From the NCBI GenBank assembly GCA_963824095.1, contig CAWGNS010000009.1:348272-412271 (forward strand): a stretch of DNA of 64,000 bases, given 5' to 3'. Within the stretch, counting starts at the first letter, position 1. The number at the start of each line of letters is the position of its first letter. The DNA comes from Terriglobia bacterium. Lineage in GTDB: Bacteria; Acidobacteriota; Terriglobia; Bryobacterales; UBA6623. The notes under the pieces were generated by a model, which was given only the letters and a program-made list of their open reading frames with translations, was not told the DNA's origin and ran no database searches. Made by a program: the position numbers and the translations under genes. Positions 3,260 to 38,476 of the stretch are shown here, piece after piece.

Positions 3260-4045
3260 ATGGTGCTGGATAACGTCATCCCGCGAAGCCCGCAACCCGA
3301 GCTGGAGCGCCCCAAGGCCCGCCGCCGCGGCATTCTCGCGGCCTGCGGCGCGCTAGCCCTATTGGCCGGCGGCTGGTCCCCCGCGCGGGCCGGTACCCCC
3401 GGAAGGGCCGAGATCCACGGCGCCATCCGCATCACCAAGCGCCTTACCAAACGTCCCGTGGCGCCGGTCTCCACTGCCTATCACCGCGGCGTCACCGTGC
3501 AGCCGCCGAGTTCCGACGAAGACTTCGTAAAGGCCGAGCTGGACCGCGTCGCCATTTACCTGGAGAGCGAGCAGTCTCTCCCCAGCGCCCCCAGAACCGC
3601 GACCTTGCAGCAAAAAGACCGCAGCTTCGTGGAAGACACGGTCGTCATCCCGGCCGGGTCGACCGTCTCCTTCCCCAACCTCGACCCGATCTTCCACAAC
3701 GTGTTCTCACTCTCGCGTGCGAAGTCGTTCGACCTGGGCAACTATCCCCAGAACCATACGCGCACGGTCACCTTTCCCAGGCCGGGCATCGTGCGCGTCT
3801 ACTGCCATCTCCACCCCAACATGAGCGCGTCGATCGTGGTCACGCCCAATCGCTGGGCCGTCAAGCCCGACGACCAGGGAAACTTCCGCCTCAGCGACGT
3901 GCCGCCGGGCAGGCACACGGTGGTGGTGTGGCACAAGTCGGCCGGATTCTTTCAGGAACCCGTCACTCTGACGGCGGGCCAGAGCGTCGAGTTGGACTTC
4001 ACGATTCCGGTGGGGGCCAGCTCGCCGTCCCACGCGGAGCCATGA
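3260..4045 (+). CDS. Tat-signal periplasmic cupredoxin-like protein with C-terminal CarboxypepD_reg-like beta-sandwich
   Basis: ORF 2828..4045(+). The 5' part runs through repeat A1, so start placed at ATG 3260. RRRGILAACGALALLAGG twin-arginine-like signal. Candidate type-1 Cu ligand pattern FHNVF...CHLHPNM. C-terminal GNFRLSDVPPGRHTVVVWH. Confidence 0.6.
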   Translation: MVLDNVIPRSPQPELERPKARRRGILAACGALALLAGGWSPARAGTPGRAEIHGAIRITKRLTKRPVAPVSTAYHRGVTVQPPSSDEDFVKAELDRVAIYLESEQSLPSAPRTATLQQKDRSFVEDTVVIPAGSTVSFPNLDPIFHNVFSLSRAKSFDLGNYPQNHTRTVTFPRPGIVRVYCHLHPNMSASIVVTPNRWAVKPDDQGNFRLSDVPPGRHTVVVWHKSAGFFQEPVTLTAGQSVELDFTIPVGASSPSHAEP

Positions 4046-30329: not shown

Positions 30330-31373
30330 TTAGGAGCTTGCCCCACGTTTGAGAACCCTGCCGGCGAGTTTCTCGTCCCCGCCGCGGATTGCCAGGTCTT
30401 CGATCGAAATCACACCCACGAACCGGCGGTTGCCGTCGAGCACCAGCAGCCGGCGGCACGGTTTACGCTCCATGATCTCGGCCGCCTGCAGCACGCTCTG
30501 GCTGTCGAGGCAATAGGCGTATTCGGCGGTCATCGCCGAACGCACCGTGGTCTGTGAGGGGTTGGCGCCTTGCGCGGTGGCCCGCACCGTGATGTCGCGG
30601 TCGGTGATCAGCCCCACGACGTCGTCGCCCGAGCGCACCGGCAGGAAACCGACGCCGCGCGCTTCCATCTGCCGCGAAGCTTCGGTCAACGACGCCTCGG
30701 CGTCGATGGTCTCGACCTCGCGGCTCATGGCGTCGCGCACCAGCACCACGCGGACGTGCGCCGGCACGTCGCTCACGCGCACCCTCGCGTGGCCGTCGGC
30801 CGCCGGGGCGCTGGTTTGCGCCCGCGTTAGCGGCTTGGTGCTATTCGCGAAATCCGCGTGCTCTTCCTGCGCCGTGGAGATGTCTTCGGCGCCGCTCTGC
30901 TCTAGAATCTGCCGCGCGTTGCTGGCCCACTGCGAGCTGTCACAATGCACCGACAGGAGAATGCCGCCCTTGCGGATGCGGCCTTCGTAGCGTTTGGCTT
31001 CGTACTCGGGAATGCCCATGCCGACCAGGCCGCCGACCACTCCGCCGACGGTGCCTCCCGCTCCGACCCCAGCCAACAGGCCCAGAATCGGCCCCGCCGC
31101 GACGAACAGCCCCAGCCCGGGAATCGACAGCGTGCCGATCCCCACCAGCCAGCCGAGCACGCCGCCCACAACGGCGCCCGAGCTCGCCCCGGCCGTTACG
31201 CCCTCGGGCGCTTTGGTGCTCTTCTCGTGCGCCAGATCTTTCGAGCCGGCGTTCTCGGGAAACAGCACCGATATGTCGGTATTGCGAAAACCGTGCGCGC
31301 GCAGGGCTTCCACCCCTTCCTCGGCGCCCGCCCGGCTCGCATAGATGCCAAAAACCGCAATGTTCTTTGTCAT
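30330..31373 (-). CDS. fusion protein: YflT/general-stress-like N-domain + glycine-zipper membrane segment + C-terminal CBS pair
   Basis: AAGGAGG upstream. MTKNIAVFGIYASRAGAEEGVEALRAHGF (YflT-like), GAVVGGVLGWLVGIG...GVGAGGTVGGVVGGLVGMG, IPEYEAKRYEGRIRKGGILLSVH, then two CBS repeats (VRDAMSREVETID...GFLPV; VRSAMTAEYAYC...LLVLD..RFVGVISIEDL). Confidence 0.75.
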   Translation of the reverse strand: MTKNIAVFGIYASRAGAEEGVEALRAHGFRNTDISVLFPENAGSKDLAHEKSTKAPEGVTAGASSGAVVGGVLGWLVGIGTLSIPGLGLFVAAGPILGLLAGVGAGGTVGGVVGGLVGMGIPEYEAKRYEGRIRKGGILLSVHCDSSQWASNARQILEQSGAEDISTAQEEHADFANSTKPLTRAQTSAPAADGHARVRVSDVPAHVRVVLVRDAMSREVETIDAEASLTEASRQMEARGVGFLPVRSGDDVVGLITDRDITVRATAQGANPSQTTVRSAMTAEYAYCLDSQSVLQAAEIMERKPCRRLLVLDGNRRFVGVISIEDLAIRGGDEKLAGRVLKRGASS

Positions 31374-31400: not shown

Positions 31401-32204
31401 TCAAAAGCCTTGATCCGAACTGCCGGCCTGCACCGTCAGTTCGTTGTGCACTTTTCCGGCGCCCGCCGCCGCCACGGCTTTGGCCTCGATATCCTGCCGT
31501 TCCGCTTCGCTGCGCACAACGCCCTTGAGCGTCACCCGCCCGTCGCGGCTGATGATCTTCACGTTGTGCGCGTAAGTCGAAAGCGTTTTATCCGCGACCA
31601 CCGCCCGCCGGATCGTCCGTGTCAACTGACGGTCTGAGGCGGTATTGCCCTGGTCATCGGCGGTGAGTCCCTGCTTCGATGCGGTCGTGCTTTTCGCTTC
31701 CTTCGTAACACCGAGAAACACGCTGGCCATCGGATCGCACGACGGTGCAATCTGTTCCACCTTCGTCGCATGGAACACCCGGCCATCGCCTTCCTTGTCG
31801 CCATAGACGCGAACCATGCGGTCTATGTAGTTCTCCAGATCGGGCGAGCCGACGACGGTAATGCGGTCGCCGCCGCCGTCTTCCTTCTCGGTAAGAATGT
31901 AGGGATCGCTCTCGTCGCCGCGCGTCAGGCATCCACGCTTCTCCATGCCTAACGTTTCCTTTAGCTTCTCGCCGGTCTTTTCCAGCGCCTTCCCGACTTC
32001 CTGCTTGGTTTCTTCTAAGGACTTCGATATGGACTCATCCTTATCCCGCTTATCCTGGGTGGCGCCCGCCGTTGATTGAGTGTCGCTGTTTTCCACCTGC
32101 CCGCTGGCGGCTTCTTGTGCCGTCGCGACGGTTCTTGTTTGGGGGTAAGACACTCCCCCCGCAGTCAACGTAACGGCGATGGCAAGAACGATGTGCCGTG
32201 TCAT
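31401..32204 (-). CDS. secreted protein with C-terminal BON domain
   Basis: GGGAGG upstream. Signal peptide MTRHIVLAIAVTLTAGG. Acidic/Lys-rich region. C-terminal BON (IRRAVVADKTLSTYAHNVKIISRDGRVTLKGVVRSEAERQDIEAKA). Confidence 0.7.
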   Translation of the reverse strand: MTRHIVLAIAVTLTAGGVSYPQTRTVATAQEAASGQVENSDTQSTAGATQDKRDKDESISKSLEETKQEVGKALEKTGEKLKETLGMEKRGCLTRGDESDPYILTEKEDGGGDRITVVGSPDLENYIDRMVRVYGDKEGDGRVFHATKVEQIAPSCDPMASVFLGVTKEAKSTTASKQGLTADDQGNTASDRQLTRTIRRAVVADKTLSTYAHNVKIISRDGRVTLKGVVRSEAERQDIEAKAVAAAGAGKVHNELTVQAGSSDQGF

Positions 32205-32657: not shown

Positions 32658-33458
32658 ATGCATCGATTTACAGTTCATTTTTTGGTCGGTTGCCTAGCCA
32701 CCGTTGGTCTGGCGGCCATGCTGCAAGCGGATGCCTGGAATAAAAAGACCGAGCTTACGGTCCACGAAAAAGTGGAAGTTCCCGGCGCGGTCCTGTCTCC
32801 TGGCAAATACGTTGTCAAACTCGTGAATTCCGAATCCAACCGCCACATCGTGCAATTTACGAATGAGGCGGAAAATCAGGTGGTTTCCACGGTGTTGGCA
32901 ATCCCGAACCAGCGCATGGAACCTACTGGCGACAGCGAGTTCACGTTTTACGAATCGCGCGTCGCGGGCACACCGGTGTTGCGCGCCTGGTTCTATCCGG
33001 GTGACACCTTCGGGCAACAGTTCGCTTATCCGAAGGATAAGGCGATCGAACTGGCAAGGGCCTCCGGCGAGGACGTGCCTTCGCTCGACGGTGACGATCT
33101 TTCGTCGGCGCATGTGAGCACGGTTTCGCCTAATGAATCGGAACCGGCCACGCCGCCGCAAGAAAGCGCGGTGACACCGGCCCCGCCGCTGGGGCGAACG
33201 CACACGCAGCCCGCGGCCCCCAAGCCCGAGCCGGCGCCCGACACCACGACATTGGCGCAAGCGCAGCCTCAGGAACAGCCTCCGGCTCGCACGCCGGCAG
33301 CCGCCGCACCGGCTCCTCAGACCACGCAACAGCCTGAGGCCGGCGAACAGCTTCCTTCGACCGCCAGCCCGGCTCCGCTGCTGGGACTGCTGGGCCTGCT
33401 GTCGCTGGCTGGAGCTTTGGGTCTGAACAGGGTGGCCAAGCAACGCGACTCGCGTTAG
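32658..33458 (+). CDS. secreted protein with C-terminal sortase-type sorting signal (LPSTAS + hydrophobic + basic tail)
   Basis: AAAGGAGG 6 nt upstream. Signal peptide ..AAMLQA/DA. ~130-aa unknown domain. ~90-aa P/A/Q-rich linker. LPSTAS at 33351-33368 followed by PAPLLGLLGLLSLAGALGL and NRVAKQRDSR. Confidence 0.7.
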   Translation: MHRFTVHFLVGCLATVGLAAMLQADAWNKKTELTVHEKVEVPGAVLSPGKYVVKLVNSESNRHIVQFTNEAENQVVSTVLAIPNQRMEPTGDSEFTFYESRVAGTPVLRAWFYPGDTFGQQFAYPKDKAIELARASGEDVPSLDGDDLSSAHVSTVSPNESEPATPPQESAVTPAPPLGRTHTQPAAPKPEPAPDTTTLAQAQPQEQPPARTPAAAAPAPQTTQQPEAGEQLPSTASPAPLLGLLGLLSLAGALGLNRVAKQRDSR

Positions 33459-33815: not shown

Positions 33816-34529
33816 ATGGTGCACCTAAGAATCCAAGGCCATAGCGAAGTCCGCCTGCTGCGAGGCGCCATCACCCTGCTGCTGGCCGCCGGGCTGGTTT
33901 GCCTGGCCCTATTCTTCTGGTACACATTCGAGGCCCAATACTCCCAGGCCTTGCTCCGCCACGAATTCGATGCGCAACAGAACAACTCCGTATCAACCCC
34001 ATCGCCCAATCCGGCGCCGCCACCGCCCGCTAAACATCCGATGCTCGTGGGCCGCCTCGAAATCCCCAGGCTCGGGGTCGAAGTCATGGTCGTCAACGGA
34101 GCCGATGCTGCCAGCTTGCGGGAAGGCGCCGGCTGGCTGCCCAACACCGCCTGGCCCGGCGACGGCAACGCCGCCATCGCCGCGCACCGCGACACGTTCT
34201 TTCGCCCGCTGCGCCACATCCGGCAAGGCGACACGGTGCTGCTGACCACGCGCGACGCCCGCTACCGCTTCCGCGTCGAGTGGACCGCCGTGGTCGACCC
34301 CGACGACACCGCGATCTTGCGGCCCACCGACGAGCCCGCGCTCACGCTCATCACCTGCTATCCGTTCTACTACGTCGGCAGCGCTCCGCAACGCTTCATC
34401 GTCCGCGCCGCCCGGCAACAACCGCTCGATGGCCCCGCCGCGAAATTGTTCCAGGGCGAGCAGCCTCCCGCCGCGTGTTCGTTCGGACCCCACGGCGGCC
34501 CCGGAAACCTGAGCGGAGCCGCCGATTGA
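33816..34529 (+). CDS. sortase family transpeptidase (membrane-anchored)
   Basis: N-terminal TM anchor (AITLLLAAGLVCLALFFWY). LEIPRLGVEVMVVNG. His context GNAAIAAHRDTFF. Cys context ALTLITCYPFYY. Arg context QRFIVRA. Confidence 0.8.
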   Translation: MVHLRIQGHSEVRLLRGAITLLLAAGLVCLALFFWYTFEAQYSQALLRHEFDAQQNNSVSTPSPNPAPPPPAKHPMLVGRLEIPRLGVEVMVVNGADAASLREGAGWLPNTAWPGDGNAAIAAHRDTFFRPLRHIRQGDTVLLTTRDARYRFRVEWTAVVDPDDTAILRPTDEPALTLITCYPFYYVGSAPQRFIVRAARQQPLDGPAAKLFQGEQPPAACSFGPHGGPGNLSGAAD

Positions 34530-34732: not shown

Positions 34733-35926
34733 GTGCCGTCTCTACTCAGCGACCTCGGCCCCCTCGAAATCCTCGACATCGCGCTCGTGGCCCTGTTCGC
34801 CTACGTGCTCATCATTTCGATGAAACGTGCCCGGGCCGGCCTCACGCTGGTCGGCATTCTCATGCTGGGCGGCGTCTATCTGGCGGCGCGCGCGATCGGC
34901 CTACAGCTCACCGCCTGGATTCTGCAAGGTTTTTTCGCCGCCATCCTGATCATGCTGGTCGTTCTGTTTCAGCGCGACCTGCGGCAGTTGTTCGAGCGCA
35001 TCGCCGTCTGGACGCTGCGCCGCAACACCGGCGTGTCCACTTCCGACGAGGCCGTGCTCTGCCTGGTCGATGCCCTGCGGACTCTGGCGCGCCGCCGCCA
35101 CGGCGCCCTGCTGGTCCTGCCCGGCAAAGATCCCCTCGACCGCCACATCGAGGGCGGCGTCGAACTGGAGGGCCGCGTCAGCTCGCCGCTGCTGATGAGC
35201 CTGTTCGACCCCGACTCGGTGGGCCACGACGGCGCGGTGATCGTCGACGGCGACACGGTGACGCGCTTCTCGGTGCATCTGCCGCTCTCGCGCGATTTCG
35301 ATCAACTCGGCCAACTCGGCACGCGCCACGCCGCCGCGCTCGGCCTCGCCGAACTCTCCGACGCCTTGTGCCTGGTGGTATCCGAAGAGCGCGGCGAAAT
35401 CTCGGTGGCGCGCAATCACCTGCTGCGCCTGCTGCCGACCCGCGAGGCGCTCGAAGACGAGATCGAGCAATTCGTCCAGACCAAGCGAAGGCCCCCCAAC
35501 GAGGGCCGCTCGCTGATTTCGTTTCTCACGACCAACTGGCTCGAAAAAGCCACCGCCGTGGGCCTGGCGCTGGGACTGTGGGTGGTGTTCGTCTCGGGAG
35601 GGCAGGGCGTCCGCCGCGAGCGTGAAGCCCCGGTGCTGGTCGACAACGTGCCCCCCGCCTTCGAAATCAGCGCCGTGACGCCCAAGCAAGTCCAAGTAAC
35701 CCTTTCGGGGCCGCGCCGCGAATTCTATACCCTCGCCGATACCGACCTCGAAGTTCGCGTCGACGGCTTCCTGGCCGGCTTGGGCCGCAGGACCTTCCGC
35801 ATCGACCCCCAGGACGTCCGCCACCCCGAGGGCCTCACCGTGCTGAGCGTAAGCCCGGCGACCGTCACGTTAACCGTCACCCGAATATCCCCAAGCCAAC
35901 CAACGCCGCCCGCGGCAAGCCCCTGA
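34733..35926 (+). CDS. cdaA: diadenylate cyclase CdaA fused to a C-terminal TM + YbbR(CdaR)-like domain
   Basis: GTG start. Three N-terminal TM helices. DAC domain HGALLVLPG...GHDGAVIV (DGA)...LGTRHAAALGLAELSDALCLVVSEERGEISVA (RHR position reads RHA). Then TM ATAVGLALGLWVVFV and a YbbR-like beta domain (VLVDNVPPAFEISAVTPKQVQVTLSGPRRE...). Confidence 0.8.
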   Translation: MPSLLSDLGPLEILDIALVALFAYVLIISMKRARAGLTLVGILMLGGVYLAARAIGLQLTAWILQGFFAAILIMLVVLFQRDLRQLFERIAVWTLRRNTGVSTSDEAVLCLVDALRTLARRRHGALLVLPGKDPLDRHIEGGVELEGRVSSPLLMSLFDPDSVGHDGAVIVDGDTVTRFSVHLPLSRDFDQLGQLGTRHAAALGLAELSDALCLVVSEERGEISVARNHLLRLLPTREALEDEIEQFVQTKRRPPNEGRSLISFLTTNWLEKATAVGLALGLWVVFVSGGQGVRREREAPVLVDNVPPAFEISAVTPKQVQVTLSGPRREFYTLADTDLEVRVDGFLAGLGRRTFRIDPQDVRHPEGLTVLSVSPATVTLTVTRISPSQPTPPAASP

Positions 35927-35982: not shown

Positions 35983-36150
35983 CGGCCCAAGTCCACGCGG
36001 GAAGGGACAGTTCGCCGGTGTTTCGCCATCGATTGTTGAGCCGCTGGCGGGCGATTGGTGGGGAGCGGAGCAAGGCTTACAGTATTCGAGGGCTTCGGCC
36101 GCCGGGCAACGAATCGCTTTTTCGCTGCCTGGGCCATCCCAGCGATCACG

Positions 36151-36507
36151 TCACCCCAGCACCCATCGCCAAATCTCGGCGACAAGGCCCACCACAAACA
36201 GCGTCCCGAAGATCGCCTTGTTGTGCCGCGCAATGAACACCGGAAGATAGATATCGAAGTTATCGGAGCGGTCGTCGGTAAACCGCGCCGCAAGATCGGT
36301 AAGCGGGCAGCGGCCTCGATGGAACGCCAGCACCGCGCATTCCATCAAAACGAACGAGGTAAGAATCGCGGCCAAATCCAGAAGCCCCCGCCAGGCCAAG
36401 AAAGGCAGAGCCACAATACACCCCGCAAAGAAAGCCCAGATCACCGTATGCAGAAGCCGAATAGCAACAAGCGCCACAACGCGATTATCGCGCAGCGAAA
36501 AATGCAA
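36151..36507 (-). CDS. small membrane protein (CPLT-motif, DUF2784-like?)
   Basis: 3' part of ORF 36151..36900(-). The upstream part of that ORF runs through repeats F and G, so a TTG (36507) or GTG (36477) start is assumed. Hydrophobic helices (VVALVAIRLLHTVIWAFFAGCIVALPFLAW, LDLAAILTSFVLMECAVLAF), RCPLTDL. Confidence 0.4.
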   Translation of the reverse strand: MHFSLRDNRVVALVAIRLLHTVIWAFFAGCIVALPFLAWRGLLDLAAILTSFVLMECAVLAFHRGRCPLTDLAARFTDDRSDNFDIYLPVFIARHNKAIFGTLFVVGLVAEIWRWVLG

Positions 36508-36532
36508 TGCGGCGTGCCAATGGAAAGCGATA

Positions 36533-36578
36533 GTAGGGTAGGCGCTCGCGCCTGCCGCGCCGCAAACCGGCGCCCGCC
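36533..36578 (+). repeat. repeat family F copy
   Basis: gtagggtaggcgctcgcgcctgccgcgccg + caaaccggcgcccgcc. Direct repeat of 35937. Confidence 0.85.
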
Positions 36579-36582
36579 TTTG

Positions 36583-36614
36583 CCGATCAACCGATCGACG
36601 GATCAACCGGCTCA
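36583..36614 (+). repeat. repeat family G: 8-bp tandem array CCGATCAA-like x4
   Basis: ccgatcaa ccgatcga cggatcaa ccggctca. Lies 75-100 nt upstream of the + strand gene starting 36689/36713. Confidence 0.75.
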
Positions 36615-36688
36615 TTCTTGAGCCCCCCGCGCGTTGCGGGCCGCCGCGCGTTCGGCTTACACTCGGGCGCTGGGTTCGACGAACCAGG

Positions 36689-38476
36689 ATGTCGACGAAC
36701 GGGGGTAGGGCCATGGTCCAACGAATGTGCTTGCCTGCGCCGCGAGCCGCGGCCGCACGCGGCGTCGCGGCGATCGTCGCGGTTTTCTTTGCGGTATTGC
36801 TTGGCGCCCAGCCGGCTCCGCAGCCAGCCCCGCAACAGGCCGCGCGCGCGCAGCCCGAGCCTCCGGCGCCGCCCGCCGACGTATCGGTCGAGGCCGACAT
36901 CGACTACTCCAATGTCGGCGGCCGCATGCAGATGGACGTTGTCCGCCCGCTGCGCGGCAATGGCCCCTTCCCGGCCGTGGTCTGCATCCATGGCGGCGGC
37001 TTCCGCGCCGGCACGCGGCAGAGTTTTCTGCCCATCGCCTACTACCTGGCGCAGCACGGCTACGTCGCTGCCACGGTGACTTACCGCCTCAGCCCGATGA
37101 ATCAGTTTCCCGCGCCGGTCGAGGACGTCAAGGCCGCGGTGCGCTTTCTGCGCGCCAACGCCGCGCGCTTCGATGTCGACCCCGATCGTATCGGCACGGT
37201 CGGCGGCTCGGCGGGCGCCCATCTGGCGTTGATGCTCGGCGTCACGGGCGGCGTGGCCGAATTCGAGGGCTCGGGCCCGAATCTCGATCGCTCCAGCCGC
37301 GTCCAGGCCGTGGTGAGTCTCTATGGGCCGACCGATTTCACCAAGTCCTACGAGCCGGGCAAGAGCGTCGACGCAGCCGAGGTGCTGCCGATGTTTCTGG
37401 GCGGCGATCTCGAGCACAACCGACCGGCGCATCTGCGCGCCAGTCCGCTCTTTTGGGTGAGCCCCGACAGCGCGCCGACACTGGCCGTCCACGGCACCAA
37501 GGACAACTACGTCGCCTATGAGCAGGCCGTGTGGATAACCGAGCGTCTGGAGGCGGCCGGCGTCCCCACCAAACTCGAAACGATCGAAGGCGCCGGCCAC
37601 GGTTTTCACGGCGCTGATCTCGAACGGGCCAAGACGGCGATGCTGGCCTGGTTCGACGAATATCTGGCGCCGCGCTCCACCCAACGCTTGTTGCTGGTCG
37701 CCGATCACGGTCCGCGGGGTGAAATCGTCGCGCTCGACTGGCCCTCGGGCCGCGAGCGCTGGACGCTGCCCAATAACCACGGCCACGACGTACAGCTTCT
37801 ACCCAACGGCCACGTCCTCTACACCACCGGCGACTGGCGCCGCGTCGTCGAGGTCGATCCGCGCAAGATCGGCGGCGGAAACGAAGAGGTCTGGAGCTAT
37901 GGCCTCGCCGAGGGCCTCAAACATCCGGTCGCCGCCGAACGCCTCTCGAATGGCAACACCGTCATCGGCGACATGGAACTCGGCGAAGTCATCGAGGTGG
38001 ACGCGGCGGGCAAGATGGTCTGGGAATACAAGAACCCCGAGATGGCCGGACATCGCATGCGCAGCGTGCGGCGCACCGCCGAAGGCACCACCTTGATTGC
38101 GATCGAGCGGCTCAATAAGGTGATCGAGGTCGACCCCGGCGGCAAGATCATCTGGACCTTCCACGCCACCGGCGGCGACGAGCGCTTTCCCTACCAGGCG
38201 CATCGGCTCCCCAACGGCAACACGCTGATCGGCATGGCCGCGCCCGGCGAAGTCGTCGAAGTGGCCCCCGACGGCAAGATCGTGCGCTCGGTCGGCGGCC
38301 TCAACGACGCGCTGCGCATGGCCTGGTGCTCGGGGCTCGAGCCTCTCCCGGGAGGAGGCTTTATCGTTTCGGATTACACCGGCAGGCGCTTGCTCGAATT
38401 CGATCCAGACTGGAAAATCGTTCACGAACTGCGTATGGGCCCACGCACCATAGCCAGCGTGTCGCTGATCCCCTAG
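36689..38476 (+). CDS. alpha/beta hydrolase (esterase/lipase-like) fused to a C-terminal beta-propeller domain
   Basis: Start ATG 36689 or 36713. Signal-like segment. HGGGF oxyanion motif (CIHGGGFRAG), GGSAGA nucleophile elbow, HGTKD, GAGHGF. C-terminal ~260 aa with repeated ..G..VIEVD..GKIVW.. blades. Confidence 0.75.
   Translation: MSTNGGRAMVQRMCLPAPRAAAARGVAAIVAVFFAVLLGAQPAPQPAPQQAARAQPEPPAPPADVSVEADIDYSNVGGRMQMDVVRPLRGNGPFPAVVCIHGGGFRAGTRQSFLPIAYYLAQHGYVAATVTYRLSPMNQFPAPVEDVKAAVRFLRANAARFDVDPDRIGTVGGSAGAHLALMLGVTGGVAEFEGSGPNLDRSSRVQAVVSLYGPTDFTKSYEPGKSVDAAEVLPMFLGGDLEHNRPAHLRASPLFWVSPDSAPTLAVHGTKDNYVAYEQAVWITERLEAAGVPTKLETIEGAGHGFHGADLERAKTAMLAWFDEYLAPRSTQRLLLVADHGPRGEIVALDWPSGRERWTLPNNHGHDVQLLPNGHVLYTTGDWRRVVEVDPRKIGGGNEEVWSYGLAEGLKHPVAAERLSNGNTVIGDMELGEVIEVDAAGKMVWEYKNPEMAGHRMRSVRRTAEGTTLIAIERLNKVIEVDPGGKIIWTFHATGGDERFPYQAHRLPNGNTLIGMAAPGEVVEVAPDGKIVRSVGGLNDALRMAWCSGLEPLPGGGFIVSDYTGRRLLEFDPDWKIVHELRMGPRTIASVSLIP

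Follow-up and report, generated by a model that had tools for sequence, protein, structure and literature searches.

In Firmicutes such as Bacillus subtilis, Listeria monocytogenes and Staphylococcus aureus, the cyclase CdaA (or DacA) is made of three transmembrane (TM) helices and a cytoplasmic diadenylate cyclase (DAC) domain with HDGA, TRH and SEE motifs. Its regulator CdaR (YbbR) is a single-pass membrane protein displaying three or four extracytoplasmic YbbR repeats. CdaR touches CdaA through TM domains (PMC10243994, PMC8316131), and B. subtilis CdaA requires its residue R126 to bind GlmM (PMC8573169). Fusions of CdaA with CdaR are on record for some streptococcal strains (UniProt A5LQF8, E1M7C3 and V8IIN0), where AlphaFold models were read as placing the CdaR TM helix beside the first TM helix of CdaA (PMC10243994). 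We report here the analysis of a gene found in a window of 64,000 nucleotides (the whole stretch of DNA that was analyzed) from contig CAWGNS010000009.1 of a Terriglobia bacterium, which encodes a CdaA-type cyclase continued by a fourth TM helix (TM4) and a YbbR domain. We consider it likely that the product is an active membrane-anchored cyclase, as predicted from its sequence, to whose C-terminus a CdaR cut down to its TM helix and first YbbR repeat has been fused.

Compared with the CdaA of Firmicutes, the window protein carries about 150 extra C-terminal residues, consisting of a linker, TM4 and the YbbR domain. It also differs by an RHR motif reading RHA, by R137/H138, D159, G164 and R220, by a score under the cut-off of the NCBIfam model TIGR00159, and by its location outside any cdaR/glmM operon. 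The features of the gene, with coordinates in the window and the evidence used, are the following:

34733..35926, plus strand: complete open reading frame (ORF) for a CdaA-type diadenylate cyclase with a TM helix and one YbbR domain; GTG start, stop included, 397 residues.
34763..34966, plus strand: three N-terminal TM helices, residues about 11-29, 37-55 and 58-78 (CdaA_N); Pfam, hydropathy and AlphaFold2 (AF2) model.
35069..35416, plus strand: cytoplasmic DAC catalytic domain, residues 113-228; Pfam DAC (E=7.5e-33), Foldseek and PDB profile.
35141..35146, plus strand: family-specific pair R137-H138, 95-96% conserved, replacing the [D/E]-[Y/F] of split-type CdaAs.
35225-35236, plus strand: HDGA catalytic motif, H165-D166-G167-A168, equivalent to B. 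subtilis H170-D171-G172-A173.
35321-35332, plus strand: T197-R198-H199-A200, the RHR motif reading RHA; codon of A200 at 35330-35332.
35381..35392, plus strand: S217-E218-E219-R220, with the invariant SEE equivalent to B. subtilis S222-E223-E224.
35441..35530, plus strand: helical linker in the cytoplasm, joining DAC to TM4 (residues about 237-266); AF2 secondary structure and charge analysis.
35534..35596, plus strand: TM4, residues 268-288, NWLEKATAVGLALGLWVVFVS, with the invariant W283; translation, AF2 and alignment.
35609..35884, plus strand: predicted extracytoplasmic YbbR domain, a single repeat, residues about 293-384; Pfam, PDB profile, AF2 and Foldseek.
35885..35923, plus strand: non-conserved Pro/Ser-rich C-terminal tail, residues 385-397; AF2 confidence (pLDDT) below 50 at 388-397, variable in alignments.

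Profile hidden Markov models recognize three domains in the protein, each above its gathering score. CdaA_N (PF19293) covers residues 12-82 with 27.2 bits for a cut-off of 23.8 and directly precedes DAC (PF02457), which covers residues 113-228 with 113.1 bits (E=7.5e-33, cut-off 27 bits); YbbR (PF07949) follows at residues 301-382, with 24.0 bits for a cut-off of 22.3. These calls and the AF2 model agree with the original prediction, made from the DNA letters, of three TM helices, a DAC domain, a fourth TM helix and a C-terminal domain. That prediction had also raised the eventuality that the ORF would really be two genes. The whole is encoded in a single frame whose G+C content at third codon positions (GC3) is 0.80-0.90 in each block of 50 codons, thus giving no hint of a frameshift or of merged genes, and homologues cover the full length of the protein. 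One could still imagine that an assembly or sequencing error joined adjacent cdaA and cdaR genes. Indeed, split cdaA and cdaR abut or overlap (in the split locus L081, cdaA ends at 4004 and cdaR starts at 4001), so that one indel could fuse both; the sporadic streptococcal fusions may have arisen in this way. However, the same protein of about 400 residues, having a linker of its own and a single YbbR repeat, is present in thousands of independent assemblies, its DAC domain is just 30-36% identical to that of split CdaAs, and GC3 is even along the ORF. We therefore rejected a merged-gene artefact on the basis of homologue alignments, genome scan and GC3, and give it next to no chance of being the explanation.

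An ORF of 307 residues runs antisense through cdaA (34901-35824, minus strand) and is an artefact of high GC. In the clustering of neighbourhood genes, the longest member of "cluster 1" was this kind of antisense ORF through cdaA and was discarded in favor of typical members; in locus L002, the counterpart of the antisense ORF is merged with the adjoining GlgX-like gene.

The assignment of the beta-rich C-terminal domain to YbbR, proposed at first sight from its resemblance to a YbbR repeat, is supported by profile searches and by fold. In addition to the Pfam score of the window protein itself, PF07949 is matched by 87 of 116 aligned homologues at E<=0.1, the best reaching 2.9e-7. All PDB sequences were compared, at E<=10, with a profile built on the last 110 residues (alignment A2), which returned two matches only, 2l3u ("YbbR family protein", 2e-4) and 5hqh ("Lmo2119", 3.7e-4). 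Lmo2119, which appears in a PDB title as "YbbR like domain of lmo2119", is presumably the CdaR of Listeria. Since the Foldseek results of the full-length model were dominated by DAC matches, the C-terminal domain was modelled alone. The resulting AF2 model is beta-rich, with a pLDDT of 90.9, and its top five PDB matches in Foldseek are all YbbR structures (5hqh, 3lyw, 4qdy, 2kq1 and 2kpu). Ribosomal L25/TL5, a known structural relative of YbbR (PMC10636490), ranks next. Structures of PF07949 for comparison are 5hqh, 4qdy, 3lyw, 2kq1 and 2l3u. Within the domain, P317, R329, D344 and G351 are invariant and R352, R353 and F355 nearly so, and the motifs GPRR.FY and LGRRTF form a conserved surface specific to the family.

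The relationship with CdaR extends beyond the fold. After the fused proteins and their fragments, the next-best carriers of the C-terminal domain are proteins of 305-400 residues, with one of 719. They have the architecture of CdaR, with a single TM helix at the N-terminus and then 2-5 YbbR stretches, and it is always their first, membrane-proximal repeat that is matched. Residues 258-397 of the window protein are collinear with residues about 3-155 of the CdaR-type proteins (up to 68 bits in BLASTP), the alignment spanning a juxtamembrane "NW.EK", the TM helix with its conserved tryptophan (W283) and the whole domain. The C-terminal part is thus homologous to the TM helix and first repeat of a standalone CdaR, as the original prediction supposed in outline, and its idea of a regulator built into the cyclase appears reasonable. 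The fused module and CdaR share this collinear anchor and first repeat, the tryptophan, the fold and, by prediction, the side of the membrane. The module is nevertheless not a full CdaR, as it consists of a single repeat, is covalently attached to the cyclase and displays a conserved surface of its own.

Among 1.84 billion representatives, the standalone proteins nearest to the fused YbbR module are found at E=1e-15 to 1e-19. Three such CdaRs could be traced to contigs, and each follows a CdaA of 248-250 residues with a canonical GTRHR. All three are then followed by a gene with the phosphohexomutase active-site motif, confirmed by Pfam in two of the three as a four-domain protein of the phosphoglucosamine-mutase type. 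These three loci are classic cdaA-cdaR-glmM operons, and the DAC/TM region of the fused protein is 30-36% identical to their CdaAs. Split operons outside Firmicutes encode the same type of cyclase but differ from the fused gene by a CdaA of 248-250 residues with RHR, a multi-repeat CdaR and a glmM located immediately downstream. Altogether, the contrast between the two arrangements is clean: fused genes have one YbbR repeat, no glmM and RH[S/A/G/T], whereas split ones have a multi-repeat CdaR, glmM and RHR. The simplest history suggested by these comparisons would be that cdaA became joined to the 5' part of cdaR in an ancestor of the clade, and that the product then diverged. A parallel can be drawn with the streptococcal fusions, which also unite cyclase and regulator in one polypeptide. 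The latter are described as "large fusion proteins", which we take to mean a full-length CdaR, and occur in hosts otherwise possessing the split operon. In contrast, the window protein belongs to an old and widespread family whose members have a linker of their own, only one repeat and a DAC site that has been remodelled.

Split operons were recorded outside Firmicutes at L081:3258-6372 (GCA_026004195.1), L083:490-2826 and L086:3043-6117. Those of L081 and L086 lie a few genes downstream of tilS, ftsH being directly upstream in L081, and pdxJ comes after the operon in L081 and L087. One cdaA (L086/L087) encodes HDGG instead of HDGA.

The orientation of the protein was deduced from hydropathy and from the distribution of positive charges. 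Residues 1-10 contain no lysine or arginine, and the loop 30-36 (MKRARAG) has a charge of +3. TM4 is a helix from residue 269 to 288 in the AF2 model and has in the family a median Kyte-Doolittle value of 1.95 over its best 17 residues; the median net charge of the family is +3 in the 18 residues before it and +0.5 in the 12 residues after it. According to the positive-inside pattern, the N-terminus and the YbbR domain would be outside, whereas the loop 30-36 and the DAC domain would face the cytoplasm. The YbbR domain is thus predicted to be periplasmic, behind a TM anchor, on the side of the membrane where the YbbR repeats of CdaR are located.

The original prediction implied that this architecture is unusual, which did not hold. 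In a protein collection clustered at 90% identity, 4,500 clusters, nearly all with proteins of about 400 residues, are homologous to the window protein at E<=1e-5. Among the best 120, 115 have a length of 380-450 residues, with 93-100% query coverage and 45-84% identity. A genome scan using one genome per species showed that relatives are encoded by at least 571 reference genomes, for the most part of Binatia, Myxococcota, Thermodesulfobacteriota and Acidobacteriota, and the best 80 loci were analyzed. The first of them belongs to a metagenome-assembled genome (MAG) of Bryobacterales (L001), with 67% identity, which by itself suggests a relative within Acidobacteriota as the source of the window. 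By record title, these 80 loci come from Binatia or Binatota (28), "Deltaproteobacteria" (22), Myxococcota and related names (11), Syntrophobacter or Syntrophobacteraceae (5), Thermodesulfobacteriota (4), Acidobacteriota (2), "Proteobacteria" (2), and Verrucomicrobiia, Elusimicrobia and Spirochaetales (1 each), with 3 unclassified. In all 73 genomic ORFs that could be called, 180-240 residues follow the RHx motif, indicating that all 73 are fused. The C-terminal profile, run against the 1.84 billion representatives (50% identity), matched 2,847 clusters at E<=1e-3 and 447 at E<=1e-10.

With 4,500 clusters and at least 571 genomes, the fusion is the standard architecture of a large clade of Gram-negative bacteria from soil and sediment. 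The homologues are named in their sources "diadenylate cyclase", "DisA nucleotide-binding domain protein", "CdaA" or "hypothetical protein", none of these names mentioning YbbR, and only about 8 of the best 120 matches carry YbbR in their precomputed Pfam annotation. Our search of the literature on such a fusion in Myxococcota, Deltaproteobacteria and Acidobacteria returned nothing relevant. The 2023 census of DAC architectures by Galperin (J Bacteriol), with its 22 DAC families, is reportedly centred, in its abstract, on N-terminal domains. The window gene is an ordinary member of a large CdaA subfamily that is visible in databases and experimentally unstudied.

The lack of an adjacent glmM, already pointed out from the sequence, was confirmed and extended to the family. 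As a test for glmM, the phosphohexomutase active-site motif [ST][AG]SHNP was sought in all six frames; it is absent from the 64-kb window and from all 80 fused loci, and present in all three of the split operons taken as positive control. Within about 6 kb of the fused genes there is in no case a separate YbbR gene or a second DAC, and the rest of the window contains neither. Moreover, the alignment column equivalent to R126 of B. subtilis, the docking arginine for GlmM, is not conserved (E 43, R 22, D 21, H 11 and Q 8 of 116), the window protein itself having an arginine. Judging from gene neighbourhoods and from this column, the fused family has dropped the link with GlmM.

We then come to the cyclase itself. 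In Foldseek, the DAC part of the full-length AF2 model superimposes with CdaA crystal structures with a root-mean-square deviation of 1.4 A and a target-normalised TM-score of about 0.9, at 35-40% sequence identity. The family profile matches the CdaA chains of the PDB at E=1e-35 to 1e-48 and can be aligned, TM region included, with the full-length CdaA structure 9g69. When mapped on B. subtilis CdaA, T202, R203 and H204 correspond to T197, R198 and H199, and R205 corresponds to A200. The alanine noticed from the sequence in place of the second arginine of RHR is thus real. The DGA motif of DAC cyclases is complete, and RHR has kept its first arginine and its histidine and lost its second arginine. 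In the 116-sequence alignment, H165, D166, G167, T197, R198, H199, S217, E218 and E219 are invariant, and A168 is found in 115 sequences. On the basis of these conserved residues, the window protein probably synthesizes cyclic di-AMP (c-di-AMP) from two ATP.

The alanine had been put forward as a change that may alter activity, which implied a private and impairing substitution. To see how common it is, position 200 was read in about 225 fused proteins, in samples that partly overlap and with a genome-scan pattern that favored RH[S/A]. The following residues were counted:

120 closest clusters: S 96, A 14, G 8, T 2, R 0, F 0.
73 genomic ORFs: S 55, A 14, G 2, T 1, R 1, F 0.
38 DAC-bearing representatives at 50% identity: S 8, A 27, G 0, T 1, R 1, F 1.
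Column 200 of the 116-sequence alignment, tallied separately: S 93, A 14, G 7, T 2, R 0.

Serine, alanine, glycine or threonine thus occupies this position in all but three of these proteins, the exceptions being two arginines and one phenylalanine. A small residue is found across the fused family, and RHA is not peculiar to the window protein. A private and damaging mutation is hardly compatible with a whole family reading RH[S/A/G/T] while its other catalytic residues are invariant.

Other changes accompany this one. We compared the family with five split-type CdaAs (B. subtilis CdaA, the 9g69 chain and the proteins of L081, L083 and L086) and found 15 DAC positions with a conservation of at least 85% among fused proteins and a residue seen in none of the five. 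Besides the R137-H138 pair, these comprise D159, where split CdaAs have I, L or M, G164, directly before HDGA, where they have L or I, and R220, directly after SEE (88% in the fused family), where they have Thr or Asp. One could assume that R137 and H138, together with R220, may compensate for the lost arginine. Since RHA comes with the newly conserved R137/H138, D159 and R220, the nucleotide-binding site seems to be remodelled and functional rather than that of a crippled enzyme. We propose that RHA is the alanine form of the normal RH[S/A/G/T] state of the family, whose site is probably active.

Several points speak against this interpretation. The compensating role suggested for R137, H138 and R220 comes from a contrast with only five split CdaAs. 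The best NCBIfam match, the CdaA equivalog TIGR00159, reaches 169.8 bits for a cut-off of 188.8, as would be expected from a divergent CdaA. The hydropathy of TM4 in the window protein is modest (1.66 over 19 residues). To our knowledge, no function has been established for the YbbR domain, even in Firmicutes, and we did not find in the literature any assay of a member of the fused family. Above all, losing the second arginine of RHR could matter. Indeed, replacing RHR by AAA abolished ATP binding and activity in the DisA of Mycobacterium tuberculosis (PMC3328451) and in the CdaM of Mycobacterium bovis (PMC13022847). However, the residues were mutated only together in both studies, so that the share of the second arginine was not separated from that of the others.

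These mutants, as well as the low equivalog score, would fit with a dead or weak pseudo-cyclase, in which the loss of the second arginine abolishes ATP binding and which acts as a scaffold, a sensor or a regulator of another DAC. Yet dead enzymes normally lose their catalytic residues, whereas the nine others listed above are invariant in 116 homologues that are 45-84% identical overall. The replacements are confined to serine, alanine, glycine and threonine and come with new conserved charged residues, which has the look of remodelling and not of decay. Furthermore, there is no second DAC near any of the 73 loci that such a protein could regulate. We therefore find a pseudo-cyclase improbable.

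On the other hand, about 15 family-specific DAC positions, several of them beside catalytic motifs such as G164 and R220, could mean that the remodelled site (RH[S/A], R137/H138, D159 and R220) changes the substrate or the product, for example towards ADP or another cyclic or linear dinucleotide, which would make a distinct class of cyclase. However, neither the fold nor any of the residues with known contacts to ribose, metal and phosphate has changed. In addition, two fused members, L011 and P0234, have kept RHR and carry D159 and R220, L011 having also R137/H138, so that the second arginine is compatible with the remodelled site. We hold altered chemistry to be quite unlikely. A broader version, in which the family would be a distinct and ancient class of cyclases of Gram-negative soil and sediment bacteria, with a YbbR sensor in cis, no control by GlmM, a rewired site and altered catalysis or input, seems doubtful to us.

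Returning to the reading that we prefer, an active CdaA-type cyclase fused with a shortened CdaR, a mechanism can be proposed. From its N-terminus, located outside, the protein would span the membrane by TM1-3, place its DAC domain in the cytoplasm and cross again by TM4 to expose the YbbR domain in the periplasm. By analogy with the TM contacts of split CdaA and CdaR, TM4 could pack on TM1-3. The state of the periplasmic YbbR domain, with a putative ligand or partner, might then be passed via the helix bundle and the helical linker. Such a signal would alter the head-to-head pairing of the cytoplasmic DAC domains and hence c-di-AMP synthesis.

The interest of the family is of two kinds. The signal perceived by CdaR and its YbbR domains has long been missing from the picture of c-di-AMP biology. 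A natural single chain, having just one YbbR repeat and no input from GlmM, is easier to approach by structural and genetic work than the three-protein system of Firmicutes and, with sensor and enzyme in the same polypeptide, could be the simplest system for finding this input. Moreover, the textbook RHR is not universal, as a very large clade keeps R-H and replaces the second arginine, and motif screens for "active" DACs would wrongly flag its members as defective. The near-universal replacement of this arginine with co-varying changes in the active site, as well as the contrast between fused and split genes, are the observations worth keeping.

Concerning the neighbouring genes, a sortase is encoded upstream of the fused cdaA (33816-34529, plus strand); it is closest to the SrtD and "GN" classes, below the subfamily cut-offs. 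It is preceded by a gene for a secreted protein of 266 residues (32658-33458, plus strand), ending with LPSTAS, a hydrophobic stretch and a basic tail, which scores 19.4 bits with the Pfam LPXTG anchor, just below the 20-bit cut-off. The two look like a sortase-substrate pair. Just downstream of cdaA, two competing ORFs overlap, at 36055-36621 (plus strand, with a weak GC3 of 0.63) and 36151-36900 (minus strand, with a C-terminal half resembling a membrane protein), neither matching a family. Further on, the gene at 36689-38476 (plus strand) encodes 595 residues with an N-terminal esterase of the BD-FAE or hormone-sensitive-lipase type and a C-terminal beta-propeller (PQQ_2, arylsulfotransferase-like repeats). 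Such a pairing of two domains in a secreted hydrolase is unusual.

About 2.5-4 kb upstream of cdaA, two ORFs on the minus strand (30330-31373 and 31401-32204) encode a YflT-TM-CBS-pair protein and a BON/OsmY-like protein. In the closest genome, the Bryobacterales MAG, the gene immediately upstream of the fused cdaA encodes a BON protein (L001:5309-5878). In other proteins, CBS pairs act as receptors of c-di-AMP, and BON proteins have been associated with osmotic stress; any connection of these genes with cdaA is speculative. Apart from BON in that genome, the neighbours seen in the window (sortase, LPxT-like protein, esterase, BON and CBS) are not conserved beside fused cdaA elsewhere, and an operon link with them was thus rejected. 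A scan for promoters and terminators gave nothing above background, and Rfam found in the window neither a riboswitch (ydaO included) nor any other RNA family.

A different neighbourhood, absent from the window, recurs in the family. About 33 of the 73 fused-cdaA loci adjoin, in either orientation, a GlgE-like GH13 gene and a TreS-maltokinase fusion (TIGR02456, 908 bits; TIGR02457, 495 bits), as in L010 (7397-9415 and 9425-12796), and also in L004, L012, L023, L047 and others. These loci belong mostly to MAGs of Binatia, "Deltaproteobacteria" and Syntrophobacteraceae. There, c-di-AMP may be linked to the metabolism of trehalose and alpha-glucan, that is, of compatible solutes, and in many Binatia and "Deltaproteobacteria" MAGs the fused cyclase may be wired to it.

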